This document shows, piece by piece, positions 49,122 through 64,000 of a stretch of 64,000 nucleotides of DNA. Within the stretch, counting starts at the first letter, position 1, and each line of letters starts with the position of its first letter. The DNA comes from an uncultured Chloroflexia bacterium (GTDB lineage: Bacteria; Chloroflexota; Anaerolineae; B4-G1; SLSP01): the NCBI GenBank assembly GCA_963751345.1, contig CAVVUS010000011.1, positions 192,001 through 256,000 of the forward strand, read 5' to 3'. The notes under the pieces are model-generated. The model did no database searches, was not told the DNA's origin, and saw only the letters and a program-made list of their open reading frames with translations. Both the position numbers and the translations under genes were made by a program.

Positions 49122-50549
49122 TTAGTCGATACAGCGGACCCGCAGGGCCAAGTACGGCATGCCCGGCAGATCGATACGCACGGTACCGGAGACCGTACCC
49201 TGGATCGGGGTCACGGTCATCTCCCAGGTGTCGATGACGTCGACCGCATAGTGTCTGTCCGCCGGCAGCCGCAGCGTCTTGGCTGCAGGCCGATGGCGGC
49301 CCAGGTAGATCAGGCGATAGGTGTCGTCCCCTGCTTGGGTGAGATCCCAATCGGCCTTGTATGGGTCGATGGCCGGCCCTGCTTGCATGATGTCGCGGAG
49401 GAAGGCGATCCTCACCGGGCTCTGACCGTGGAGCACGCCGCCCTTGGACCACCATAGGACGTCCTCGGGGTGCAGATAGGTCTCTCCGTGACCGACGTAG
49501 CCGCCTCGCGCGCAGCCCTCCCAGAACCGGTGTACCATCTCCTGAGCCGTGATGTTGCCCCAGTTGTTCGGGATGTTGCCCTCATACTGACACTCGTCGA
49601 CGACCACAGGCTTGTGGTACTGCTCGCGCCACTGTGTGACGCGCTCCAGGTCCGAGTGCTGGATGCTGCAGTGCGTGACCCAGGGCTTGTTGTGATCGTA
49701 GAACTCGCGGCAGTTGTGGATGGATCTTGGATGCTGATAGGGATCGTAGGTCTGCACGATTCGGAAGAACCGGTCCCAGTCCGGCATCGACTTGGCCTTC
49801 ATCAGGTCGTACTCATTGGCCATCGACCACCAAACGTTCCGGTATGCGGCCACGCGCGCGATCAGATAGCGCAGATAGCGGTCGTCGACGTCGGCCGGCA
49901 TTGTGCTGTATCCCCAACGGTCGTAGGGATGGAAGAGGATGAGATCCGCCTCGATGCCCAGCGCGCGAAGATCGCCGATGCGCTGCTCCAGATGCCGGAA
50001 GAACGCAGGGTTGAAGCGCTCGAAGTCGAAGCTGCCGTCGGCGTTCCGCTCGAAGGCGTGGTACACCGGCTCGTTCTCGTTGTAGGTATAGTGTTTCGGG
50101 AAGACGCACATCCGCAGCTTGTTGAACGGCGCGGTGCCGAGGGTCGCCAGCGTCTGTGTCTCCAGGGCGTCGCCCTGGTGCACCCACGCGTAGCAGGTCG
50201 TGCCGAACGAGAAATGGGGCGTCCCATCTTCGTATCGGAAGTGGTAGGTCCTATCGGTCCGCACCGGGCCGTGATTGCCGGCGTTCTCAGGTGTGCAGAT
50301 GAAGATGCCGCTTTGCCCATCCAGCGAGGGGACGTTGCTTTGTGTGGTGAAGCGCCACTCGCCCACGGCGTCGGGCATAAAGCGCAGCTTGTAGGTGCCG
50401 TCGCCGTCGTAGAACCCCTCGACCTCAACGCGACGGTTCTTGTAGCTGAACGTTGCCCCGAGCTCGACGTCGACAAATGGATTGCCCTCCCGAGGCCCCG
50501 CGAGGGTCAGCTCGAAGATTCCCCACTTCTCAGTGCTACCGTTCTGCAT
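49122..50549 (-). CDS. DUF5060-DUF4038-DUF5605 putative glycoside hydrolase (apiosidase/GH140-related fold)
   Basis: [50 protein letters not shown]. Confidence 0.8.
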
Positions 50550-50595
50550 GGTCGTGTCCTCCACGGTTGGCGACTGGCGGCTTTGCGGACGACTA

Positions 50596-51486
50596 TCACT
50601 CGGCGATGAAGGAATTCGTCAGTGTGCCCAGGTCGCCAACCTCGATTGTGATCTTGTCGCCCGGCTTCATCCAGACCTTCTCCTTCATGCCGAGGATCAC
50701 GCCCTCGGGCGTGCCGGTCAGGATGACGTCGCCCGGCTTGAGCACCATATAGCGGCTGGCGTAGCTAACGATCTCGGCGACCGTGAAGACCATATCAGCG
50801 GTGTTGGAGTTCTGGCGCAACTCCCCGTTGAGCCAGCTCTTGGTCGTCAATTGCTGGGGATCCGGGACCTCGTCCGCGGTCACCAGGTAAGGGCCGATGG
50901 GGCAGAACTTGTCCATCGTCTTGCCCAGCAGCCACTGGCTCGTGCGCATCTGCAGATCGCGCGCGCTGACGTCGTTGGCATTGCAGTAGCCAAGGACATA
51001 GTCCAGCGCCTTATCCACCGATACGTGCTTGGCCGTCTTGCCCATGACGACCGCAAGTTCGACCTCGTAGTCGTACTCGATGGCCTCGGCGCTAAGCGGG
51101 ATCACCTCGCCGTGGCCGGCGAGCGCGTTATTGAACTTCGAGAAGAGTACCGGGAACTCGGGAACCTCGGCACCGGATTCGGCCGCGTGCCGCCGGTAGT
51201 TCAGCCCGACACACAGGATCTTCTCGGGATTGTGGACACAGGGGCCGAACTGAAGTGCGGACTCATCCAGCATCCATGCGGCGCCCTTGGCTTTTGGCAT
51301 CGCCTCAGCCAGGAGGCTGGCCAGATCCGGCACGGCGCTCAGCCCACGTGAGAAGACGGCGGCTGGTGTGGTGGGCACGTCGTCGCGCTCCAGGGCCGCC
51401 GCGGCAGCGCGTACGTCGAGCACCCCCATGGCTGTCTTGATGCCGAGCGACGTGCCTCTTAGCGATTTGAACGTAAGTAGTCTCAT
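50596..51486 (-). CDS. Fumarylacetoacetate hydrolase family protein
   Basis: [31 protein letters not shown]. Confidence 0.92.
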
Positions 51487-51497
51487 CTCTTCCCCCT

Positions 51498-52469
51498 CTA
51501 TAGGTTCTCAGTTGTTAACCTGCCGTCGGCCAACGCCGTGCGGAAGGTGGCGATGGTCGACGCCACGCCCTGATCGAGGCCGGTGTAGGAAAGCGAACCG
51601 AGCAGCTCTGCGAGGCGCGAGTCGTCCTGACCGTCAGGGAAGGGCAGCGGCGTTGGGTCATAGGAGATGGTCCCCTTGGCTGAGGGCACGGCAGCCTCGA
51701 TCGCGCCCACAACCTCACCCATATCGACGACCGACCCCCTGACGTTGTAGACCTCGGCGCCCTCGAAGCCGACGTCCGCGACCTTGACGAAGAGCCCGGC
51801 GATGTCCTCGGTATACTGCATGCCGCTGCGCCCGCCGTACGTGATGTGGTAGGGCAGCCCTGCTGCTGCGGCCAGCATAGCTTTGGTCGGGGTGGACGTC
51901 ATCCCCTGGTCGCGACCTGGGCCGTAGATCACGTAAGGCCGCAGGCCGATGCTGCTCAGGCCGTAGTCCCACCAGAAGACTCTGCTGGTCGACTCGTTGG
52001 CCTGCTTGAAGACGCCGTAGAGCGTTCTGGGTTTCAGAAGATCGTCCGGCTGGATGAGCGCTCCGGCGTACTCTTCCCTCAGCCCATACGCCGCCACACT
52101 GCTGGCGTAGACGACGCGCTTGAGCTCAAGCTGCCGCGCGACCTCAAAGACGTTCACCGTGCCGACGACGTTGACCCGTGCGCCCAGGGCGGGATTGGCC
52201 TTGCAGGCGGGCACCTGCAGCGCGGCAAGGTGGATGATGTCGGTGACACCCGCGCCCTCGGCCAGGCTCAGCAGTTGCTTGAGGTCCGTGATGTCGCCCT
52301 TGGCGAAGTGCACCTGCCCCAGTTCATCCGGCGTCATGATCAGTCTCATGCGGTGTGGGTCGTCGGCCAGATCGAAGGCCGTGACCGACCTGCCTTGCCT
52401 GACAAGCGTCCTGACGACCCACGATCCGATGCATCCCAGGGCTCCCGTCACGAGAAAATGTCTATTCAT
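51498..52469 (-). CDS. NAD-dependent epimerase/dehydratase (extended SDR)
   Basis: VTGALGCIG, HLAA, YGVFK, YGPGR. Confidence 0.88.
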   Translation of the reverse strand: MNRHFLVTGALGCIGSWVVRTLVRQGRSVTAFDLADDPHRMRLIMTPDELGQVHFAKGDITDLKQLLSLAEGAGVTDIIHLAALQVPACKANPALGARVNVVGTVNVFEVARQLELKRVVYASSVAAYGLREEYAGALIQPDDLLKPRTLYGVFKQANESTSRVFWWDYGLSSIGLRPYVIYGPGRDQGMTSTPTKAMLAAAAGLPYHITYGGRSGMQYTEDIAGLFVKVADVGFEGAEVYNVRGSVVDMGEVVGAIEAAVPSAKGTISYDPTPLPFPDGQDDSRLAELLGSLSYTGLDQGVASTIATFRTALADGRLTTENL

Positions 52470-52508: not shown

Positions 52509-52568
52509 AGACCTTTGGGGTTTCCTTCACAACCAGGTGTCTACTCGACGAGGAAACCCCAAAGGTCT
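52509..52568. repeat. Perfect 18-bp inverted repeat in an intra-operon spacer
   Basis: AGACCTTTGGGGTTTCCT-N24-AGGAAACCCCAAAGGTCT. Confidence 0.8.
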
Positions 52569-52579
52569 CTGCGGGCTAC

Positions 52580-53663
52580 CTAGATGACCTCCAGGTCCAC
52601 GCGCTCGGGCAGGACCGGGAACGGGGCCGTCGGCAGCGACTGGTACCAGTAGACCACCGAGGCGATATCGTCCTGCAGAGGCAGATAGCGTCCGCCGTTC
52701 CGCCAGCCCAGCGCCTGGATGGTGACCCTGCAGGTCACGCTGGAACCGGATGGGATCGGCAATGTGCCAGCGGTAGAGGCCAAACCGCATCTGCGAGCGA
52801 TAGACGCCGTCGGGCTTGATGACCTGGTGCAAGCCGGCATAGGGAGTCGAGAAGGGCTGGTATTGGTGCAGCGCCCTGTTTTCGAAGTTGTACGAGCCGC
52901 AGAAATAGTCCTCCGTGCCGGTGCCGCAGATGGTCGGGTACGCGTCGTCGCCGTCCATATAGAACTTGATCTCGCCCTCGCCCCACCAGCCGTTGTTGTT
53001 CACGCCCCACGCCATGTAGGTGCCGACGTAGTGTCCGTGGCCCCGGACGCCGTCGAGCAGTGTGTAGACGTCCTTGTAGGGCAGCGGGTTGACGCGGCGG
53101 AATTGGGCGTGGAAGTAGCCGCAGTCCTCCGGAACGTCGGTCAGCGTGTAGTTGATCTGATAGTAGAGCACCATCGGATCGTCGGCGATATTCGTCAGCG
53201 TGATGCGGCAGTGGGTGCGGAAGGGCATCTCCCAGTAGCTGTTGAACGCACTCCCCGGATTCACGCAGACCGCCAGCGACGAGAGCTGTGCGTATTCACC
53301 CCAACCCATCGCGAAGAAGTCCCCGACCGGGCACTCGACCGACGGCTGCTCCTGGCCATCCCAGTAGATGCGCAGGATGCTGAACCGCCAGTTACCGGTG
53401 GGTGTCATCCAGATCTGCTGAATGGCACCGGGGCCGTCGATATCCGCGAGTTCGAACGTCTCCCCGGCGCCGATGCGCACCGACGGTGAGATCTTCCATC
53501 CCGGCCCGAGGTCCCGGGCGCATCGGGCGCCGGTGCCCTCCGTGGCCATCCCGGCTTTGCCTTTTTCGCCCGTGAAGTTCTCGGGGCTGATCGAGCGCGT
53601 CCGTGCGTCGGACAGCCTCGAGAGCGTCCCCATATTCATGCCCAAACCGTTGAAACTCGACAT
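52580..53663 (-). CDS. Glycoside hydrolase family 172 (DUF2961); frameshift near 52735
   Basis: SISPENFTGEKG, WWGEGEIKF, GTGTEDYF, YRWHIADPI; DIASVVYWYQ in the second frame. Confidence 0.88.
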
Positions 53664-53679
53664 TCGATGACCTCCGATT

Positions 53680-55503
53680 TCAGATTTCGATGGGTTCCGA
53701 CAGTTCGCCGTCCCGCCGCCAGAAGTCGACCGCGCGAACCCAATAGACGCCGTGCTCATCGGCAGGCGTGTGCACGAAGACTGAGTCCAGCAAGTCGGCT
53801 TCGTTCACCCTTTTGAACGGCCCGGCGACAGTCGCGGCGTAGAGCACCTCGTAGGTCTGGAGGGTCCGCGCGCTGACGCCGTGCCACGTCAGCAACACTT
53901 CACCTTCACCGGTCATTCCCTCGAACCGCTCCGCGCGGAGCCCTGTGACCTTCTCCGGCCTGATCTGGGGGTCCGCCGTCAACAGTACCAACACGACACT
54001 GGGCAGTACCAGGTCGAAGCTGGTCGTCAAGAGGCCCTCGATGATCCTTACCTGGTGCGGGGCACCCATCTGATGAAGCTCCTGCTGCCTCCGCATCTCG
54101 GTGTATTGCTCGGGTGTCGGATGGTCCGGCGCACCCATCGCCTCCCAGACAGTGAAGGGATCGCCATGCGCTTTGTCGATCCTGTAGTAGGCCAGCACGG
54201 CGTGGCCAAAGGGCAGGCCTTCGAGATTGAGCGTCACCCGCGTGCTGCCGCCTGCCATCATCCTGTCGTCGCTGTTGTAGAGCAGGATCGCTACCTGTTC
54301 GTCGCCCCGCCGGGTGGCAATGACGCCCAGCGGCTCCGACACGTCGCCGGCACCCGTGACCGAGCACCGTTCGTCCCCCAAGAGCGACAGCATCGTCATC
54401 ACGTTGAGCACGGGCTTCTTGATCAGCTCGAACCGTCGCCGCCTCGGATCCTCCTCCATCTTTGGGGCGTCTCGATGCCCGGGGGCCTGTCCGTGATCGA
54501 TGTGATCGAGCTCTGCGAACCGGGCCAGGAGCGTGCGGTGTCCCCACGTCCCAAGGAACCCATTGTCGTTGCTGAGGACAGCATAGTCCACGCCCTTCTC
54601 ATCGACAAGCCTGACCAAGTGCTGGTTGATGATCTTGGCGACCAACGCCGCGTAGTAGGGGCGCGCGCGCCACGTGTGGATTGTGCCCCATCCGACCTGC
54701 GGATCGCACTCGTTGTTGCCGAAAGGCAGCGAGGCGAGGGTGGGGTGATGCTCGCGGATGTAGTCGATGATCCGCGCCTCCCGCTCGACGATGCCCATCG
54801 AGCTGGGGGTAAGGTCCTCCTCGTGCGACCGTACGCCCTTTTCGTGGACTGAGAGGAAGGCCGGGCGGTGGGCAGGCTCGCCGGTGAGCACATTGGTGCC
54901 GCCGTCGCAGTGGGCCAGAAAGGCTTTCAGCGTGTCGGACAGGTTCCTGCACGTGCCGGGGCCTCCCAGGCGAAGCTCGGGGTCGGCGTCCGCCAGGCCC
55001 GCGGCACATGCGTCGTAGTAGATACAGAGGGCTGCGTCGCTCTGCTGCCAGAAGCCGACGTCCGGTTCATTCCAGGTCTCAAAGAGCCAGCCGCGGACCT
55101 CCGACTGTCCATATCGCGAGATCAAATGGCGTGCCAGATCACGTACGAGACGCCGCCACGCGCGTGCCTGGGTCAGGTCGGTGTAGTCGTCGAAGTAGCC
55201 GCCGACGTTGCCCATCAGCTCGAAGAAGGGGCGCAGGCCGTTTCCGACGAGCGCGTCAAGCGACCTGTCGAGGCGCGACCAATCGTAACTCGTCTCCTCC
55301 GTGCCCAGACCTTCTGCCGTGACCAGCTCAAGCAGATAATGGATGCGAACCCACGAGATGCCCCCGTGTGGGACCGCGCCGACGTAGGCCATAGCCTGCC
55401 GCATATCTGCGTCCAGGAGCAAGTTGGCGGGCGTGAATCCGGTGCTCTGCCAGAAGTGGCGCAGCGGCCCGGCGCTCTCGGAGCAGTTGATGTTGAGATT
55501 CAT
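53680..55503 (-). CDS. GH39 alpha-L-iduronidase-like glycoside hydrolase
   Basis: FWQSTGF, FELMG, FETWNEPD (acid/base), NNECDPQVGW (nucleophile), LSNDNGFL and a C-terminal FN3-like VRAVDFW. Confidence 0.82.
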   Translation of the reverse strand: MNLNINCSESAGPLRHFWQSTGFTPANLLLDADMRQAMAYVGAVPHGGISWVRIHYLLELVTAEGLGTEETSYDWSRLDRSLDALVGNGLRPFFELMGNVGGYFDDYTDLTQARAWRRLVRDLARHLISRYGQSEVRGWLFETWNEPDVGFWQQSDAALCIYYDACAAGLADADPELRLGGPGTCRNLSDTLKAFLAHCDGGTNVLTGEPAHRPAFLSVHEKGVRSHEEDLTPSSMGIVEREARIIDYIREHHPTLASLPFGNNECDPQVGWGTIHTWRARPYYAALVAKIINQHLVRLVDEKGVDYAVLSNDNGFLGTWGHRTLLARFAELDHIDHGQAPGHRDAPKMEEDPRRRRFELIKKPVLNVMTMLSLLGDERCSVTGAGDVSEPLGVIATRRGDEQVAILLYNSDDRMMAGGSTRVTLNLEGLPFGHAVLAYYRIDKAHGDPFTVWEAMGAPDHPTPEQYTEMRRQQELHQMGAPHQVRIIEGLLTTSFDLVLPSVVLVLLTADPQIRPEKVTGLRAERFEGMTGEGEVLLTWHGVSARTLQTYEVLYAATVAGPFKRVNEADLLDSVFVHTPADEHGVYWVRAVDFWRRDGELSEPIEI

Positions 55504-55505
55504 GT

Positions 55506-56933
55506 CTAGACCTCCACCAGCACGCTTGCGCGTTCAGTGTGCCGCGGTTCGGGCAGCGACAGAGAGAGCGGGAGCGCTGCCAGGATGCCGACCGCCGTGA
55601 TGATAAAGAGGATCTGGTAATTACTGTGGGACCATTCGAGGATGAACCCGCCCAGGGTCGAGAAGAGCGCCGTGATGCCGCCGAGTGTGTTGGTCAGGCC
55701 CATGTAGAGGGGCCGCTCGGCATCGGGCGCCCATTCCAGGACGAAGGCGGTCCAGCCCGGCAGGAAGCAGCTCATCGAGGCCTGGTTCATCAGAAAGACC
55801 AGGCCGTAGGCCCAGGCCAGCCAGAAAGGGTCGCTAATCCATCGCGGAATGAGCAGCGCCAGAACCGGCACGGCTATCGTGACCGGAATGCTGATCTGCG
55901 TGGCGAATCGTGTGCCTCTGCGCTCGTTGGCCCATCCGAAGGCTGCGGCTGCGAGAATTCCCCCAATGACGCCGATCGAGGTGTAGCGGCCCGCGACCTG
56001 GTCGGGGAGGCCAAGACGGTCGATCGCGTACGTGATGTAGAAGGGTGCTGCGAGGCCGCTCAGACCGAAGAGTTGGCGCGTGATCAGATAGCGACGGAAA
56101 GCGTGGTCTCTTCGCATCACTTTCCCGAGCTGGGGCAGATACTCTCGCCACGTGGGCACTCTCTCCGCCACCACACCCTTGGGTTCGACCCCGTGGGCCA
56201 CCGCAGTGAACGAGACGGCGAGCATGCCGAACCCCAACAGAAAGAGCCACGCGTAGTTGAGCGGAAAGCCGGGGCCCCGAACGCTCAGTATTCGTTCGAC
56301 GATAAATCCCGCCCCGAAGCTGAGGATACCCGAGAGGATCTGGCCTGTGCCGGTCAGGCGTCCGCGGCGGTGGGGTGGGATCGCCTTACTCAGGAAGTCG
56401 AACCATGCCAGGCTTGCCATGCCGTCGCCGATCCAGAAGATGCTGAGCGTGGCGATGGCGATGCCGATCATTAGCCCCGGAGAGCGCGCTCTCGTCACCC
56501 AGATCAGGATCGCCAGGATCAGGATCTGGCTGCGGCTGATGCCCGCCGGGACGAGAATGTACGGCTTCTTGAACGGCTTGTCGGCCAGATATCGGGCCGC
56601 CAGGAGCTGCGGCAGCAGCCATCCGGCCCGCTGCAGGGTAGAGAGCAGCCCGATCTCCGCCGTCGATGCCCCCAATGAGCTCAGGAAACTCGGGATGACG
56701 GTGCTGGGGCCGAAGAAGGCCATCCCAATCCCGAAGAAGCAGAAATCCATCGCCAGGCACCAGAAGTTCCGGCGAAAGCGCGGTGGCAGCGTGCCCTCTC
56801 CAAACGCAAGCTGTCTGGCGAGGCCCTCTTCCTCAGGGGGAGGGATTACCGGACCGGCGCCCCCGGAGGGGGTCGGATGAGGAGGAGGCGCGGTCAGCGC
56901 CAGCTCATCGGACACCGAGGCCACCTCAGGCAT
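55506..56933 (-). CDS. MFS transporter
   Basis: About 12 TM helices, RRGRLTG, ERPLYMG. Confidence 0.82.
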   Translation of the reverse strand: MPEVASVSDELALTAPPPHPTPSGGAGPVIPPPEEEGLARQLAFGEGTLPPRFRRNFWCLAMDFCFFGIGMAFFGPSTVIPSFLSSLGASTAEIGLLSTLQRAGWLLPQLLAARYLADKPFKKPYILVPAGISRSQILILAILIWVTRARSPGLMIGIAIATLSIFWIGDGMASLAWFDFLSKAIPPHRRGRLTGTGQILSGILSFGAGFIVERILSVRGPGFPLNYAWLFLLGFGMLAVSFTAVAHGVEPKGVVAERVPTWREYLPQLGKVMRRDHAFRRYLITRQLFGLSGLAAPFYITYAIDRLGLPDQVAGRYTSIGVIGGILAAAAFGWANERRGTRFATQISIPVTIAVPVLALLIPRWISDPFWLAWAYGLVFLMNQASMSCFLPGWTAFVLEWAPDAERPLYMGLTNTLGGITALFSTLGGFILEWSHSNYQILFIITAVGILAALPLSLSLPEPRHTERASVLVEV

Positions 56934-58245
56934 TGGGCAGGTACCCGCCCAAGGTCTTGAGGCGTGCTTGCAGCTCGGGAACGTCCACGGCGTGGACGGA
57001 GAGATCCTTGTCCGCGGCCAGGCTTGCCGCGATCCCCGCGGCTTGTCCGGTAATATAGCACCCGGGCATCACGCGGATGGAGCCCTGCAGAAAGCGGTCG
57101 GTGCTGACGCATCGCCCGGCGACGAGGACGTTGTCCAGGCCCCGCGGCGTCAGGATACGATAGGGGATGCCGTAGCTCTCCCCTCTCCCGTAGCGAAGCG
57201 TCTTGAACTCCTCCTCGAACTTGGCGAAGTCCTCCGAGCTCGGGGTCGAGGCATGGATGTCGACGGGGTAGTTGTAGCGGCCGATCTCGTCCTCGAAGAC
57301 GGCGCGGGCCTTGAAGTCGTCGAGCTTCAGAACGTAGTCGCCCATGATCCTGCGCGTCTCGCGCAGTCCCATCAGGGCGCCGGTTGCCGCCAGCGTCATA
57401 TCCTCGAAACCCTCAAGATATCCCTTGTAGTAGGTCTCATACTCGGCCATGCTCTGGCGTCCCCAGAGCAGCGCCTTGGTCAGCGACCGCTCGTCGGTGC
57501 CGTCGACGCCGAAGGTATGACCGACGTTGCCCCCGCCCATGTGAGCGGATACGGGCCACATGCCCGGCAGGTGGCGGTCCTGGATCGTGAAGACGCCGTC
57601 GGCAAATGCCCGCTCGAGCCCGCTGCCCTGCGCGGGGGTGGCGCGTGCCCAATCCACCCCGCTCCAGAGGCTGCACAGCGTACCCGGCATCATGTTGCCT
57701 TCGGCGTCGCCCTTCTCGAAGGGCGCGCCGGCCCACGTGGCGATGTCGCCGTCGCCGGTCCCGTCGACGAATACCTTCGCCTTGACCGCGAAGAGACCAC
57801 TCTTGGCCGCACAGACGGCGGCTTCGACGTGGCCTCCCTCGTGCTCTATGCCGACCACCTGGGTGTGGAAAGTGAAGTCGATCGTCGTCTGCTCCTGAAC
57901 GACGTCGTCGTAGACGCGCTTGAGTGCCTCAGTGTTGATCGAGACACTGCTGGCCGGATCGTCCCGCGGGGTGTCCGCATACATCTTCGTCCGCTCGTAG
58001 ATCTCGCGGCCAATGCCGTCGGCGAGGAAGTGAACGCCATCGCTGAAACACATGAAGGCCGGAACCAGGCCCGCGGTTCCCATTCCGCCGAAGCAGGCCT
58101 GCCCTTCGGCAATAAAGACGCTGGCGCCCTGGCGCGCAGCTGCCAGGGCTGCCGCAACGCCGGACGGCCCACCGCCCGCGACGAAGACGTCAACCTCGTG
58201 GCGGACCGGAATCTCACGGCGAAACGTCAAGCTCTCTGTTGACAT
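56926..58245 (-). CDS. FAD-dependent oxidoreductase (PF12831-like)
   Basis: VAGGGPSG, FVDGTGDG, RETRRI, IPYRIL, NVLVAGRCVS. Confidence 0.88.
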   Translation of the reverse strand: MSTESLTFRREIPVRHEVDVFVAGGGPSGVAAALAAARQGASVFIAEGQACFGGMGTAGLVPAFMCFSDGVHFLADGIGREIYERTKMYADTPRDDPASSVSINTEALKRVYDDVVQEQTTIDFTFHTQVVGIEHEGGHVEAAVCAAKSGLFAVKAKVFVDGTGDGDIATWAGAPFEKGDAEGNMMPGTLCSLWSGVDWARATPAQGSGLERAFADGVFTIQDRHLPGMWPVSAHMGGGNVGHTFGVDGTDERSLTKALLWGRQSMAEYETYYKGYLEGFEDMTLAATGALMGLRETRRIMGDYVLKLDDFKARAVFEDEIGRYNYPVDIHASTPSSEDFAKFEEEFKTLRYGRGESYGIPYRILTPRGLDNVLVAGRCVSTDRFLQGSIRVMPGCYITGQAAGIAASLAADKDLSVHAVDVPELQARLKTLGGYLPNA

Positions 58246-58275
58246 AGGGTATCCCTCCGGTTTTCAGCAAAGCTG

Positions 58276-59554
58276 CTATGCGTCTGCACTAATTCCCGTT
58301 TCCTGTACGGTCTTGTACATCGCCAGGACATTCTCGACGGGCGAGAGCGGCTGGACGTTGTGGATGGTGTTGAAGACAAAGCCGCCGCCGGGGCTGAAGA
58401 TCCGCACCCGTTCGCGCACCTCGGCGCGCACCTCGTCGGGTGTGCCGAAGGGCAGCGTCTTCTGGGTGTCGACGCCTCCGCCCCAGAACGTGATCTGGCG
58501 GCCAAAAGTCTCCTTGAGCATCGCGGGATCCATGTCGGCAGCCGAGCATTGCACGGGGTTGAGGATGTCGAACCCGGCCTCGATGAAGTCGGGGATGAGC
58601 TTGACCACCGAGCCACACGAGTGGATGAAGGTCTTCCAGTTCGTGTTGGCGTGGATCCACGCGTTCATCCGGATGTGGTAGGGCTGATAGAGCGAACGGT
58701 AGGTGCGCGGCGAGATGAAGGGCCCGCGCTGCGTGCCGAAGTCGGTGCCGGTCACCAGCAGCGCCGCCACACGGTTGCCCACGACCTCGTAGATCCGGGT
58801 CAGGTTCTCGATCGCAATCTCGGTCTGGCGTGCGAAGACAGCCTCGACGTATTCGCGGCGCGAGACGGTGCTGATGTACCATTCCTCGACGTCGCGGATG
58901 CCCTTGGGATGCTTGAGCCACGGCGCCGGCACCAGGGCGATGTCGCCGAGACCTGTGCCGCCGAAGTTGGCCAGGATGGCCTTATCCGTCTCGTTGTAGA
59001 GGCGTTCCGACTCCCGCGCGTAGTACGCCAGATCCGCCTCGGAGATCGGGCCGAACTCCTCCAGGTTATCCTCGACATCCAGCGCAGTCGTCGTCGATCG
59101 CAGGCTGGCGAACCGTCGAATCGAAATACCAGCCGCCCGCGGGCATCCTGCCGCTGGGGGGCACGGAAGTGTCGCCCTCGGGATAGAGGAACAGATCGCC
59201 GTTGGGCGCGGGCTCCGTGTTGAAACCTGCCGGCACCAGGACCGGCGTGCCGTCGAAGGTCGTCCACGGCTTCCAGCCCGCGTTCTCGAAACCGAACATC
59301 GTCCTTGGCGCGATCAGTCCGACCACGTCGATGCCCAGGGCCTCCATCAGGTCGGGCTCGATCTCGCCCAGCATCTGGTAGGGCTCCACGACCTTGACAG
59401 GGGTTCCGGTAGGGTCGAGGCCCAGTGCCTGCCGCAGCTTGTAGACGACGCTGACGTGCATACCGGTGACCGCACTGCCGCCAAGGTCGACGGGCACGCG
59501 GTCGGGTTCCTCGTGTGCCAATGCCATCATCACGCGCTCTCGCGATGTCGTCAT
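58276..59554 (-). CDS. Uroporphyrinogen decarboxylase / MtaA-CmuA methyltransferase family protein; frameshift near 59080
   Basis: SRERV..EPDRVP, TDFGTQ, HSCG, LNPVQ, FWGGGVDTQ, HNVQ. Confidence 0.85.
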
Positions 59555-59661
59555 CGATCTGCGCTCCTTTCGGATGTGTTGTGCCAGACGCCTGCCGTGG
59601 CCGTCCGCACGACCTCAAGCCGATCTTCGTCGTGGGTGCCCTGACGCTGACGGTTCCGGGC

Positions 59662-59721
59662 CGGAAGACGGGGCGCCGCCCCGTCTCTACGAAAATCGGT
59701 ATGCGGCCGTAGAGACGCGCC
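59662..59721. repeat. GTAG-type REP-like hairpin plus an inverted partial copy
   Basis: CGGAAGACGGGGCGCCGCCCCGTCTCTAC (28/29 identical to 48994-49022), then GTAGAGACGCGCC at 59709. Confidence 0.75.
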
Positions 59722-59726
59722 AGGCA

Positions 59727-60353
59727 TTATGCTCCGACGGCGCTCAACCATGCCTGCGCAATCAGGGCGTGGCCCGCAGGCGACGGATGGACCCCGTCGG
59801 GAAGCCAGAACCCCATCTCCCGTTTGGTCGCGGCTGCGGCAAAGAGCCCGTCCAGCGGCACAAAGGTGGCCTCAAACTCGCGGGCCAGCTTCCGTGCGAC
59901 GGCAATCTTGGGATCGAGGTCCACCCGCCACGATGCACGGTCCTCTGGGACCGGCAGGCAGAAGGGTTCCAGGATCACGAGCTTTGCGTTCAACTTTTCC
60001 CGTGTCTGCTCCAGGATTGCCCGGAAGTTGGCCCCATAGACCTGGGCAGAGGTCGGATCGTCGCTGTCGTAGCGTCGCCAGGTGTCGTTGATGCCGATAA
60101 GGATCGACACCCACGTCGGCGCGAGGTCGAGGCAATCGGGCTGCCACCGCCGCTTCAGGTCCGCGGCACGGTTCCCACTGATGCCCCGGTTGATGAATCG
60201 CACGTTCTTCTCGGGATGGAGCGCCGAGAACCACGCGGCGACCATCGCCGGGTATCCTCTCCCAAGGTCTACGTCGTTCTCACGACTGCGCCCGGCGTCC
60301 GTGATGCTGTCGCCCTGAAAGAGCACGACAGCGCTGTTTTCGATCTTCGTCAT
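59727..60353 (-). CDS. SGNH/GDSL hydrolase (putative carbohydrate esterase)
   Basis: FQGDSIT, NRGISG, IGIND, DGVHP. Confidence 0.9.
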   Translation of the reverse strand: MTKIENSAVVLFQGDSITDAGRSRENDVDLGRGYPAMVAAWFSALHPEKNVRFINRGISGNRAADLKRRWQPDCLDLAPTWVSILIGINDTWRRYDSDDPTSAQVYGANFRAILEQTREKLNAKLVILEPFCLPVPEDRASWRVDLDPKIAVARKLAREFEATFVPLDGLFAAAATKREMGFWLPDGVHPSPAGHALIAQAWLSAVGA

Positions 60354-60371
60354 AGGTTCTCTCCTTGTCGA

Positions 60372-62087
60372 CTACAACCACAGACCTTCGGTGTTCCATA
60401 GCGCGAACTCACGATGACCATTGGCCTCGGCCTTGGTCTCTCGCCCGGAGGCCACGTCGAGAATGGTTTGGAAGATCACGGCTCCCATCTCCGGCAGGCT
60501 CAACCCCTCGGTCAACACAGCGCCCGCGTTGACGTCCATGTCCGTATGCATCCGCTCGTACAGCGGGGTGTTAGAGCTGATCTTGATGACGGGCGCGATG
60601 GCGTTGCCGATGCCGGTGCCCCGTCCCGTCGTGAAGCAGACGACCTGGCATCCAGCGCCCACGAGGCCGGGGACCGACAGCTGGTCGTAGCCCGGCGTGT
60701 TCAGCAGGTAGACTCCGGAGTTCCGGCGGTCCCAGACCCACTCGCCGTAGTACATCACGTCTTGGACCGGCGCGCTGCCGCTCTTGGCTTGGGCACCCAG
60801 TGACTTGATGGTGATGTTGAGCAGCCCTCCTGCCTTATTGCCGGGGCTGGGATTCTCCTCCATAGTGTGACCGGAACGTGCGGCATACTCGCGGTACCAT
60901 TGGAGCGCCTCGAAGACGGCGTCGGCGACCTCGCGGTTGACCGCTCGCGCGGCAAAGAGGTGCGCCGCACCGAAGAACTCCGGGACTTCACCGATGACGC
61001 TGCGCCCCCCGGCGCGGACCAGCAGGTCGCTGGCCTGGCCCAGCGCGGGGTTGGCCGTGAGCCCGCTGAAGGCATCGCTGCCGCCGCACTCCAATCCCAA
61101 TGCCAACTTGCTGAGCGGTGCGGGCTCTCGTGCGGTCTCGTTTGCCTCTGCGAGCAGACCGGGCAGCAGCGCAAGCCCTTGTTCAATCGTTGCCTGTGTC
61201 CCGCCCAGTTGCTGGATCGCCAGGCGGCGCACCGGCTTCCCGTAGAGCGCTTCCAGGTCCGACGTGCCGAAGTAGGTGTCAAAGGCCGCGAGGTTCGTCT
61301 TTTCACACCCAAGTTCGACGATGATCGCAGCCCCGACGTTGGGGTGCCGGATGTGCTGAGCGAGCATGCGCAGGGTGGCCTCATACGCTCCCGGCCCCTT
61401 CGTCTCGACCGTGGGGTCCGGACACGCGCATCCGCCGTCGTGCGCGATCGAGGTCACGCCGTCGACGTTGGGGTAGGCATCGCGTGAGTACAGGCCCTGC
61501 AATTCGGCGCGCGTCGCGATCTGGGTCGCCTCGTGGGCGGCACACATACTCGCGGGCACGATCAGCACCCAGTTCCTGATTCCGACCTGCCCATCGGCGC
61601 GGTGGAACCCCTCAAAGGTGGGCAGATCGCCCTCCCAAGGGGGCAGCACAGGTGGATCAAGCACCAGTTGCTCGGCCCCGAGCAGCAGCTCGGACTCGAT
61701 CTCCGGCACCTCGCTGTCGGCGGTATCGTTGTTGATCGGATCGCCCGGCTCGACGCCCCTGGATCGCGCGAAGGGTTGCCCGTACTGGCGAATCCATTCG
61801 CCGGCGGGCACGGGGCGTATCGCGAACCGATGGCCCGCCGGAATGTCGGCGCGCACCACGATCGTGGTCTCCGCTTTATTTGCCCTCTCGCTGTCCGGGG
61901 GAGGGCAGCCCCGGTCCTCCTGCGCGGGGAGGGGGGGCGCCGGGTCCCACGTGAGGACGGTGTTTGCCGGGATAAGCTGCTTTGCGACGGCGACGTGATC
62001 CTGGTCGGGATTGACCACCACGGCCACGTCGCGGAGTCGTTGGGTATTGGGATGTGTTGTCATTGGATTCGTTGAGGTCCTGGTCAC
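60372..62087 (-). CDS. uxaA: UxaA-family altronate/galactarate dehydratase (SAF plus GD_AH domains)
   Basis: GIRN, HDGGC, LGCE, LECGGSD, NPSPGNKAGG, FTTGRG; ATG at 62063 is an alternative start. Confidence 0.85.
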   Translation of the reverse strand: MTRTSTNPMTTHPNTQRLRDVAVVVNPDQDHVAVAKQLIPANTVLTWDPAPPLPAQEDRGCPPPDSERANKAETTIVVRADIPAGHRFAIRPVPAGEWIRQYGQPFARSRGVEPGDPINNDTADSEVPEIESELLLGAEQLVLDPPVLPPWEGDLPTFEGFHRADGQVGIRNWVLIVPASMCAAHEATQIATRAELQGLYSRDAYPNVDGVTSIAHDGGCACPDPTVETKGPGAYEATLRMLAQHIRHPNVGAAIIVELGCEKTNLAAFDTYFGTSDLEALYGKPVRRLAIQQLGGTQATIEQGLALLPGLLAEANETAREPAPLSKLALGLECGGSDAFSGLTANPALGQASDLLVRAGGRSVIGEVPEFFGAAHLFAARAVNREVADAVFEALQWYREYAARSGHTMEENPSPGNKAGGLLNITIKSLGAQAKSGSAPVQDVMYYGEWVWDRRNSGVYLLNTPGYDQLSVPGLVGAGCQVVCFTTGRGTGIGNAIAPVIKISSNTPLYERMHTDMDVNAGAVLTEGLSLPEMGAVIFQTILDVASGRETKAEANGHREFALWNTEGLWL

Positions 62088-62949: not shown

Positions 62950-64000
62950 CTACCAGTCGGCCACACTGCCGTCCGAGGGATAGAAGAACTCGCCACCGAG
63001 CTCCTCCGTATACTCGACGCTGTGCTGGACAGCGTCTTCGTCGATCTCAAAGCCGAGGCCGGGCTTGGTGGGCAGCTCGATGAAGCCATCCTTGACCTGC
63101 CAGTCCTCCTGCAACAGGCCATCGCCCAGACAGGCATCGACCTGTTCCTGGATCAGGAAGTTGGGCACCACGGCATCGACCTGCATACAGGCTGCGAAGG
63201 CCACTGGGCCGATGGCGCAGTGAGGCATGATGTGCATATAGTAGACCTCGGCCATATTCGCGACCTTCTTGAGTTCACTGATCCCACCGACGTGCGAGCC
63301 ATCCGGCTGAATCAGCGAGACCGCGTGCTTCTCGAAGATCTCGCGGAATCCCCAACGGGTCAGCAGACGCTCACCTGTCGCGATGGGGAAGGAGACGTGA
63401 TCGGAGACAAGCTTCATCGCGTCGACGTTCTCCTGGGGCACCGGCTCCTCGACAAACATCGGGCGCATGCCCTTGAGCTCGTTGCAGACCTCGATGGCCA
63501 ATCCGGGCGTCATCTTGCCGTGGAAGTCGAAGCAGAGCTCCACATCCGGCCCGACCCATTCGCGCATCAGATAGGCACGTCTGACAAAGTCGTCGATGGC
63601 AGCAGGCGGTTCGTGGGCGCGCCAGAAGCCACCGGGCCCTCCTTTGTAGGCGGTATATCCCATCGTCTGGAGCCGCTCCAGTCGTTCGCGCGACCGGGCC
63701 AGCCCCTCAGCACTCAGGTCGTGGATGCCCCAATGAGCGTAGACGCGGATCCGGTCGCGCACTTGCCCGCCCATCAGACGGTACGAAGGGACGCCGTAGG
63801 CCTTGCCCGCGATGTCCCACAATGCCTGGTCGATGCCGGAGAGCGCCGACATGACGACGGGGCCCCCGCGGAAGAACGATGAGCGGTAGATGTGCTGCCA
63901 GTGGTGCTCAATGCGGAGGGGATCTTTGCCGACGAGATAGGTTGCCATTTCGTCGACGGCGGCACACGTGCTGGCGGGACGCCCCTCCAGGGTGGTCTCG
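62950..64000 (-). CDS. dgoD: Enolase-superfamily sugar-acid dehydratase (DgoD/galactonate dehydratase-like); 5' end outside the window
   Basis: SALSGIDQALWDI, DFHG, FVEEP, ATGER, QPD, PH, PGLG. Confidence 0.8.
   Translation of the reverse strand, partial: ETTLEGRPASTCAAVDEMATYLVGKDPLRIEHHWQHIYRSSFFRGGPVVMSALSGIDQALWDIAGKAYGVPSYRLMGGQVRDRIRVYAHWGIHDLSAEGLARSRERLERLQTMGYTAYKGGPGGFWRAHEPPAAIDDFVRRAYLMREWVGPDVELCFDFHGKMTPGLAIEVCNELKGMRPMFVEEPVPQENVDAMKLVSDHVSFPIATGERLLTRWGFREIFEKHAVSLIQPDGSHVGGISELKKVANMAEVYYMHIMPHCAIGPVAFAACMQVDAVVPNFLIQEQVDACLGDGLLQEDWQVKDGFIELPTKPGLGFEIDEDAVQHSVEYTEELGGEFFYPSDGSVADW

Follow-up and report, generated by a model that had tools for sequence, protein, structure and literature searches.

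Described GH39 relatives

The closest described relative of the protein analysed here is a GH39 protein of Rhizobium leguminosarum bv. trifolii (PDB 5NDX). Its structure was released in 2018 under a title that calls it "the bacterial orthologue of human a-L-iduronidase" and presents it as catalytically competent and as needing no N-glycans. 4-MU-alpha-L-iduronide is bound in 5NDX (PMC10794756). In our HMMER alignment, the 5NDX chain carried Q in place of the acid/base Glu, which would be expected if an active enzyme had been trapped with its substrate. A literature search, with most subscription journals beyond its coverage, returned no primary paper describing 5NDX or bacterial iduronidases; the mentions of 5NDX that it found were secondary only.

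Two further groups served for comparison. The first is human alpha-L-iduronidase (IDUA; 3W81, 4KGJ, 4MJ2), a lysosomal enzyme in which we take E182 to be the acid/base Glu, E299 the catalytic nucleophile, K264 and R363 the carboxylate-binding residues, and G305 and W306 the backbone contacts to the carboxylate. The second comprises the GH39 beta-xylosidases (XynB of Thermoanaerobacterium and Geobacillus, and CcXynB2 of Caulobacter; 1PX8, 2BS9, 4EKJ), which belong to the same CAZy family.

The GH39 gene and its place in the family

The gene lies at 53680..55503 on the minus strand of the window (the whole 64,000-nucleotide stretch that was analysed). It is an intact ORF of 607 amino acids, with an ATG start preceded by GGAGG. 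The first-pass annotation had read thirteen motifs from it and set them beside human IDUA motifs. All 13 were present in the translation (FWQSTGF, WVRIHYLLEL, FELMG, FETWNEPD, YYDAC, LGGPG, SVHEKG, NNECDPQVGW, WRARPYYAALV, LSNDNGFL, RTLLARF, LIKKPVL and VRAVDFW), and every one of the human motifs was found, collinear with the query, in the HMMER alignment to the human chain 4kgj_A (FWRSTGF, VRTHWLLEL, FELMG, FETWNEPD, YYDAC, SLHRKG, NDEADPLVGW, LSNDNAFL, RTLTARF, LLRKPVL and VRALDYW). The reported absence of a signal peptide was likewise borne out. The ORF was called from the first start codon that follows a stop, and the upstream gene has its own stop 2 nt before the ATG, so the ORF cannot be extended upstream. 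Residue 3 already pairs with 5NDX residue 7 in the HMMER alignment. The N-terminal motif was located in 113 close homologues, 110 of which have no N-terminal overhang. A signal peptide is not possible, and the protein would act in the cytoplasm.

PF01229 (Pfam GH39) scored 246 bits against a cut-off of 26 (E 9e-73, residues 3-474), and PF21200 (Pfam, alpha-L-iduronidase C-terminal domain) scored 47 bits against a cut-off of 27 (E 3e-12, residues 533-606). The latter match, at 53686..53907 on the minus strand, marks the IDUA-type C-terminal Ig/FN3-like domain, which the first-pass annotation had proposed as an FN3 domain. In full-length HMMER comparisons, the protein matched 5NDX at 481 bits (E 5e-143) and 4kgj_A at 327 bits (E 2e-96; query 5-605 on human residues 34-636); judged by these alignment scores, the human match is far above chance. 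BLASTP against P0194, a primate IDUA that itself scores 1273 bits over human IDUA residues 1-644, gave 36.7% identity over 640 columns (E 4e-100). The NCBIfam search returned no model naming the GH39 protein.

An AlphaFold model (pLDDT 86, pTM 0.90) showed a TIM barrel (~18-375), a beta-sandwich (~2-13 and 378-509) and the Ig/FN3-like domain (~520-606, with strands at 520-593). Its TM-scores were 0.91 to 5NDX, 0.86-0.88 to human IDUA and, normalised to the query, 0.63-0.64 to the beta-xylosidases. The beta-xylosidases have the TIM barrel, the beta-sandwich, the NEP acid/base motif and the position of the nucleophile in common with the query, but they have a two-domain architecture with no IDUA-type C-terminal domain. 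They scored 77-92 bits, in the N-terminal half only, and the best of them (92 bits) aligned over residues 5-247 only.

A FastTree phylogeny of 136 rows combined 133 IDUA-like sequences with three xylosidase-type paralogues of the same genome, one of which was compared with PDB entries and was xylosidase-type. The IDUA-like set, with the window protein in it, was separated from these paralogues at an SH-like value of 99, and the clustering with beta-xylosidases that the first-pass annotation had named as evidence against its claim was not seen. The window protein and all 33 named prokaryotic rows fell in one 59-row clade (SH-like 93), and the primate sequence P0194 fell in a separate clade of unnamed sequences. 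On bit scores, tree and TM-scores, we rejected an assignment of the protein to the beta-xylosidases.

We then compared the active sites. The BLASTP alignment paired R53/R89, H55/H91, N145/N181, E146/E182, K222/K264, E265/E299, D267/D301, G271/G305, W272/W306, D313/D349 and R323/R363 (query/human). All codons named here are on the minus strand. Those of N145 and E146, the NEP motif, lie at 55066..55071, and the Glu is kept in 130 of the 133 clade rows. The codons of E265 (54709..54711), K222 (54838..54840) and R323 (54535..54537) specify residues that are each kept in 131 of 133 rows. Those of G271 and W272 lie at 54688..54693 (G in 114 and W in 129 of 133 rows), and the Asp at D313 is kept in 130-131 of them. 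Neither the Lys nor the Arg carboxylate binder is present in two of the three xylosidase-type paralogues, which have Y at the K222 position; the query has both. K222, R323 and G271/W272 are all in place, and the loss of carboxylate-binding residues that the first-pass annotation had named as evidence against its claim was not seen. The protein retains all the human IDUA active-site residues compared here.

Profiles, alignments, tree and model all agree with the proposed assignment to the iduronidase clade. The ORF is a bacterial member of the GH39 alpha-L-iduronidase (IDUA-like) clade and retains its three-domain layout. It resembles 5NDX in its three domains and active-site residues, in lacking a signal peptide, in not relying on N-glycans, and in a bacterial loop after the R363 equivalent (query residues 315-344 are of low confidence in the model). 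The two belong to different branches of the prokaryotic clade and to different phyla: 5NDX is from Alphaproteobacteria and the query from Chloroflexota/Anaerolineae. With human IDUA, the query shares both catalytic Glu residues, the carboxylate binders and the C-terminal domain. It differs in an extra ~20-residue loop at ~329-357 and in being neither lysosomal nor secreted. The Asn residues that we take to be N-glycosylated in the human enzyme, including N372 with its presumed substrate-contacting glycan, are not retained, and N372 corresponds to D336. Without a signal peptide or these glycosylation sites, and placed in a separate clade, the protein is not an orthologue of animal lysosomal IDUA in the strict sense.

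Genomic context

The GH39 gene sits in a run of minus-strand genes separated by -8 to 57 nt, with one exception of 172 nt. Directly upstream is an MFS transporter gene (55506..56933; MFS_1 E 1e-19 in Pfam), adjacent in 17 of 80 related loci. Directly downstream is a DUF2961 (GH172) gene (52527..53663; PF11175 E 2e-88), adjacent in 18 of the 80; 16 nt separate its ATG, which is accompanied by a GGAGG, from the GH39 stop. Further downstream, Pfam and NCBIfam identified an NAD-dependent epimerase/SDR (51498-52469; kept in 14 of 80 loci), an FAH-family hydrolase (50596-51486; 16 of 80) and a DUF5060-apiosidase-like-DUF5605 protein (GH140-like; 49122-50564; 12 of 80); no NCBIfam model named the MFS, GH172 or GH140-like proteins. 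Upstream of the transporter gene are genes for a PF12831 FAD-dependent oxidoreductase (56926-58245), a URO-D/MtaA-like protein (58276-59554; in 15 of 80 loci, frameshifted in this assembly at about 59088-59090), an SGNH/GDSL esterase (59727-60353) and a UxaA/GarD-family sugar-acid dehydratase (60372-62087). These upstream genes (56926..62087) are kept in 11-15 of the 80 loci. The gene order is retained in about 20 Anaerolineae loci; about 60 of the 80 carry other neighbours, and the operon occurs only among close Anaerolineae relatives. The transcription unit is drawn from spacing and synteny only, because promoter-like sites (3, with 2.5 in shuffled sequence) and terminator-like sites (7, with 7.2) showed no excess and gave no operon boundaries.

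This context also bears on whether the gene is a working bacterial gene at all. That it is instead a eukaryotic contaminant, was recently acquired from an animal or is decaying into a pseudogene could be suspected from the frameshift in the URO-D-like gene of the same operon and from the assembly, which has 49 contigs and an estimated contamination of 5.6%. Against this, the GH39 frame is intact, its ATG follows a GGAGG, and the gene is tightly coupled to bacterial neighbours at a GC content (0.63-0.64) like that of the surrounding DNA. In another Chloroflexota assembly, the same operon contains a relative that is 96% identical in the best tblastn segment. The low identity to primate IDUA and the position inside a clade of named prokaryotic sequences speak against an animal source. 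We consider this explanation highly improbable, and contamination or a pseudogene is effectively refuted by the synteny, in line with the matching GC content and the unbroken reading frame.

Nothing among the operon partners is specific to iduronate. The FAH protein is nearest to a hydrolase of the deoxy-rhamnonate pathway, and an enolase gene among the partners passes the NCBIfam cut-off for galactonate dehydratase. GH172 enzymes are reported to act on alpha-D-fructofuranosides and D-arabinofuranosides.

Contexts in other phyla were different. In loci of Devosia, Bosea and Ahrensia, KduI is encoded directly upstream of the GH39 gene, together with an Opp-type ABC importer; the query has the MFS transporter, GH172 and esterase in place of the importer and KduI of these alphaproteobacterial relatives. 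The alphaproteobacterial comparison covered Devosia, Bosea, Ahrensia and Neorhizobium. A Zn-dependent alcohol dehydrogenase is encoded upstream in six loci, and the Halogranum copy is adjoined by an enolase-family dehydratase. Neighbours were clustered from greedy longest-ORF calls, which include some antisense ORFs in GC-rich DNA; several clusters without Pfam matches were ignored, and the Pfam search covered 87 of 146 neighbour ORFs. Within this scope, the predicted neighbours in other phyla appear to link the family to uronate or sugar-acid metabolism.

In the host genome, we counted 47 sulfatase-family matches, found no GH88 and found only one heparinase II/III-like match. The sulfatases without GH88 may point to sulfated glycans being broken down much as in the lysosome, by exo-sulfatases together with exo-glycosidases, and not by a lyase route.

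Proposed function and significance

The protein, an intact cytoplasmic IDUA-like GH39 encoded in a tightly packed operon, probably acts as an exo-glycosidase on an imported uronate-containing oligosaccharide. It would be a retaining enzyme with E146 as acid/base and E265 as nucleophile, and K222, R323 and the G271-W272 backbone would bind a terminal uronic acid by its C6 carboxylate. Its most likely substrate would be a non-reducing-end alpha-L-iduronate. The MFS transporter encoded just upstream is the likely importer of a small uronate-containing oligosaccharide, which in the cytoplasm the SGNH esterase would de-esterify and the GH39, GH172 and GH140-like enzymes would trim. The sugar acids released would then be processed by the dehydratase, SDR and FAH-type enzymes of the operon.

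Alpha-L-iduronides, beta-D-glucuronides and beta-D-xylosides have their anomeric geometry in common, and the GH39 protein could therefore have a different specificity. With fold and clade unchanged, it might act in the cytoplasm as an exo-beta-D-glucuronidase, as a beta-xylosidase-like enzyme or as a glycosidase for another 6-carboxy or 6-deoxy sugar of bacterial or algal glycans, and the name iduronidase would in that case merely have been transferred from the animal enzymes. The operon partners (GH172, the GH140-like protein, the galactonate-dehydratase-like enzyme and the rhamnonate-pathway-like FAH protein) and the variation of gene contexts among phyla are in keeping with such a specificity, and the lack of GH88 and the single heparinase II/III-like match in the genome argue against classical glycosaminoglycan use. 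We nevertheless regard it as unlikely, because the equivalents of K264, R363, G305-W306 and D349 are kept (K, R and D in 130-131 of 133 rows) and KduI and other uronate-linked neighbours reappear in other phyla. In addition, the R. leguminosarum relative was crystallised with 4-MU-iduronide, and its title calls it catalytically competent. Against the iduronidase reading stands the identity of 39% between the query and this relative, the one bacterial relative in which an iduronide is bound.

A wider proposal extends the iduronidase reading to the whole locus. Ten genes, encoding the UxaA-like dehydratase, SGNH esterase, URO-D/MtaA-like protein, PF12831 flavoprotein, MFS importer, IDUA-like GH39, GH172, SDR, FAH hydrolase and GH140-like protein, could form a complete and undescribed cytoplasmic route for a uronate (possibly iduronate, possibly acetylated) oligosaccharide, including the catabolism of free L-iduronate. 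We know of no bacterial catabolic pathway for free L-iduronate, and we offer this proposal as a speculative one that is quite doubtful as a whole.

The novelty implied by the first-pass annotation did not stand. In a scan of species-representative genomes, 212 of 220 pattern matches encoded relatives. Among clusters at 50% identity, 258 had E<=1e-30. Both Pfam domains were present in 117 of the best 120 homologues, and the JGI annotation of such proteins is already "L-iduronidase". Because of these relatives, clusters and names, and of 5NDX, the claim to novelty fails: many IDUA-like GH39 proteins of bacteria and archaea share this architecture, and the non-glycosylated bacterial model of IDUA that had been put forward was already realised in 5NDX in 2018. 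The large prokaryotic family to which the query belongs already has a solved representative, and the query is ordinary within it.

This family occurs widely among bacteria and in at least one haloarchaeon, and the query alone matters little. The synteny gives gene sets for questions about the natural substrate and the fate of the uronate: Anaerolineae have MFS-GH39-GH172, Alphaproteobacteria combine KduI and GH39 with an Opp-type ABC importer, and Verrucomicrobiota and Planctomycetota pair GH39 with a Zn-dependent dehydrogenase.

Identity of the GH39 protein

The GH39 gene (53680..55503, minus strand) was recovered in the ORF listing of the window as one 607-aa frame starting with ATG, with GGAGG a few bases 5' of the start. 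No extension of the ORF is possible: the MFS gene preceding it ends with a stop codon at 55506-55508, 2 nt ahead of this ATG. The GC content of the region (0.63-0.64) was the same as in the remainder of the window. The first-pass annotation had proposed that the product follows human lysosomal alpha-L-iduronidase (IDUA) motif by motif. All the motifs it quoted were found in the translation, and the human motifs it listed were all present and collinear with the query in a HMMER alignment to the human IDUA chain 4kgj_A.

Pfam matched PF01229 (GH39) at residues 3-474 (E 9e-73) and PF21200 (alpha-L-iduronidase C-terminal domain) at residues 533-606 (E 3e-12). The top match among PDB sequences was the bacterial orthologue 5NDX_A (481 bits, E 5e-143, query 3-601), followed by human IDUA chains (327 bits, E ~2e-96, query 5-605 versus residues 34-636); the top beta-xylosidase reached 92 bits, restricted to residues 5-247. 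By BLASTP, the protein matched the database entry P0194 with E 4e-100 and 36.7% identity over 640 columns. P0194 itself scored 1273 bits against human IDUA (4mj2) across residues 1-644 and is essentially human or primate IDUA. An AlphaFold model based on an input alignment of 14 sequences had a pTM of 0.90 and a mean pLDDT of 86, with residues 315-344 as the sole long low-confidence stretch. Using this model, Foldseek ranked 5NDX first (TM 0.91, 39% identity), human IDUA entries next (TM 0.86-0.88) and GH39 beta-xylosidases after them (TM 0.63-0.64).

Relatives, phylogeny and cellular location

Orthologues of IDUA abound in bacteria, and their annotation is routine. A word-indexed search in which 8000 candidates were scored gave 378 homologues at E<=1e-10. 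Both Pfam domains were present in 117 of the best 120 of these, at 48-74% identity; these 120, mostly from Anaerolineae, carried the NCBI name 'GH39 family glycosyl hydrolase' and, where JGI gave a name, 'L-iduronidase'. An exhaustive search of 50%-identity representatives yielded 258 clusters at E<=1e-30. Species-representative prokaryotic genomes were also scanned once with two peptide patterns, and 212 of the 220 stretches obtained encoded relatives. The 80 loci kept came from Chloroflexota, Planctomycetota, Verrucomicrobiota, Spirochaetota, Fibrobacterota, Halanaerobiaceae, several Alphaproteobacteria, a Comamonadaceae MAG and the haloarchaeon Halogranum amylolyticum.

A FastTree phylogeny (136 rows, 599 columns) combined the window protein with a set of 33 from the 80 loci, chosen by hand for taxon spread, 99 of the 150 listed 50%-identity representatives (560-720 aa; the other 51 were excluded by length) and, as outgroup, three xylosidase-type GH39 paralogues of the window's genome. 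The outgroup was split from the IDUA-like set with an SH-like support of 99. The window protein and all 33 locus-derived prokaryotic rows fell in one 59-row clade (support 93), and P0194 in a separate 44-row clade (support 87) otherwise made up exclusively of 50%-identity representatives. Deep nodes are weak, given the long branches and uneven composition of which FastTree warned. Sequence, fold and tree all place the protein on the IDUA side and apart from the beta-xylosidases, and its assignment to the iduronidase clade was correct.

Two further groupings were observed in the tree. The Halogranum amylolyticum copy (L056, 8001-9875; 49% identical in the best tblastn segment) grouped with a sequence from Halanaerobiaceae, a hint of interdomain transfer in saline habitats. 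The GH39 genes of an Actinomycetota MAG (L061) and a Dormiibacterota MAG (L063) were near-identical (branch lengths 0.003-0.004), owing to misbinning or else to a transfer that is very recent.

The proposed lack of a signal peptide also held, as the ORF cannot be extended upstream. An N-terminal motif of the F-W-x-S-T-G-F type was detected in 113 of the best 120 of the 378 homologues and began within 25 residues of the N-terminus in 110 of the 113, leaving no space for a signal peptide. In 48 of the 69 distant representatives with the motif, more than 25 residues preceded it, with a hydrophobic stretch among them in 45. A cytoplasmic location is therefore usual in the prokaryotic IDUA-like clade and not peculiar to the window protein.

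Active site and the known bacterial orthologue

In the pairwise alignment, R53, H55, N145, E146, K222 and E265 corresponded to human R89, H91, N181, E182, K264 and E299, and D267, G271, W272, D313 and R323 to human D301, G305, W306, D349 and R363; the mapping was confirmed at the codon level. In human IDUA, E182 is the acid/base and E299 the nucleophile, and the substrate carboxylate is bound by K264, R363 and the backbone of G305-W306. The carboxylate binders were thus retained in the window protein. Among 133 IDUA-like rows, E182 was kept in 130, E299 in 131, K264 in 131, R363 in 131 and D349 in 130; the Lys and Arg were absent from two of the three xylosidase-type paralogues. The glycan on human N372 contacts the substrate. 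This position is D336 in the window protein, and the other human glycosylation sites considered are also non-Asn. The bacterial proteins have an additional loop C-terminal to the R363 equivalent (HMMER alignment; low-confidence residues 315-344 of the model), and it is a speculation that this loop substitutes for the N372 glycan. The ligand contacts given in PMC10794756 include His91 and Asn181.

The first-pass annotation had also offered the protein as a non-glycosylated IDUA model. Such a model is not new: 5NDX, released on 2018-07-11, was solved for exactly that purpose, and its PDB title describes a bacterial orthologue of human IDUA and states that N-glycan modifications are not needed for catalysis. 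It is described as a Rhizobium leguminosarum bv. trifolii orthologue crystallized with 4-methylumbelliferyl alpha-L-iduronide (PMC10794756), with an extra C-terminal beta-sandwich (PMC6933502). In the HMMER alignment, 5NDX has N-Q at the family's N-E position, which fits an acid/base mutant made to trap substrate.

Gene context and host genome

From 62087 to 49122, every gene lies on the minus strand, with intergenic gaps of -8 to 57 nt and a single exception of 172 nt. The ten genes encode, in order, a UxaA/GarD-family dehydratase, an SGNH/GDSL esterase, a URO-D/MtaA-like protein (58276-59554), a PF12831 flavoprotein, an MFS transporter, GH39, a DUF2961 (GH172) protein starting 16 nt past the GH39 stop with GGAGG in front, an NAD-dependent epimerase/SDR, a FAH-family hydrolase and a DUF5060-apiosidase-like-DUF5605 (GH140-like) protein. 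GH172 enzymes are described as alpha-D-fructofuranosidases or D-arabinofuranosidases. The URO-D/MtaA-like gene is split near 59088-59090, with residues 1-155 of the L001 homologue in frame -1 and 156-420 in frame -2. The homologue is a single 427-aa ORF in locus L001 and keeps one frame throughout in L003, whose GH39 is 96% identical to the window's; the break is due to a frameshift or to misassembly. A short way upstream of the operon, an enolase-superfamily gene (62950-63999, minus strand, running past the window end) scored 354 bits to NCBIfam galactonate dehydratase (cut-off 311). A promoter-like site (62829-62802, minus strand, 10/12 matches) lies between this gene and the operon.

When the operon proteins were searched by tblastn in the 80 GH39 loci, DUF2961 was adjacent to GH39 in 18, MFS in 17, FAH in 16, URO-D-like in 15, epimerase in 14, GH140-like in 12, and flavoprotein and UxaA in 11 each. 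Nearly all loci with these proteins were from Anaerolineae, with a GH39 identity of at least 60%; they were not found by tblastn at the other ~60. The ten-gene operon was kept in ~20 Anaerolineae assemblies (L001-L020, L022, L048).

Neighbours were further surveyed with Pfam on 87 ORFs from 14 hand-picked distant loci, and on cluster representatives of 570 ORFs from all 80 loci. In the Alphaproteobacteria Devosia, Bosea and Ahrensia, an Opp-type ABC importer is followed by a KduI/IolB-family isomerase gene immediately upstream of GH39 (L046 6390-7229, L068 6760-7920, L073 7102-7944); Ahrensia has an SDR gene directly downstream. A Zn-dependent medium-chain alcohol dehydrogenase lies just upstream of GH39 in six loci (L029, L031, L045, L050, L053, L064; e.g. 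L050 6907-8004) from Phycisphaeraceae (Planctomycetota), Alkalispirochaeta (Spirochaetota), Verrucomicrobiota and Opitutales. L-Idonate 5-dehydrogenase is a member of this superfamily, and the neighbour is a lead as a candidate for iduronate catabolism. In Halogranum, components of a sugar ABC transporter occur along with an enolase-family dehydratase and a regulator of the IclR type, and PfkB kinases occur at three loci.

The window's assembly (5.40 Mb, 49 contigs, completeness 93.4%, contamination 5.6%) had 47 sulfatase-family (PF00884) matches, some being pieces of one gene, one heparinase II/III-like match and zero GH88 matches at this 93% completeness. This suggests that the organism attacks sulfated glycans, perhaps as a specialist, and not mainly via lyase plus GH88. 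Four more Pfam GH39 matches were above cut-off in the genome: L082 (contig C1), L083 (C11:99043-100161), L084 (C19) and L085 (C21). L082 (381 aa, apparently short at the N-terminus) is xylosidase-type, with 1PX8 as its top PDB match (116 bits).

Across gene contexts, an importer recurs alongside genes of sugar-acid metabolism. This agrees with the cleavage of imported oligosaccharides by an exo-uronidase in the cytoplasm and does not specify the substrate. The conserved operon provides testable candidates for the natural substrate and for the fate of the released uronate.
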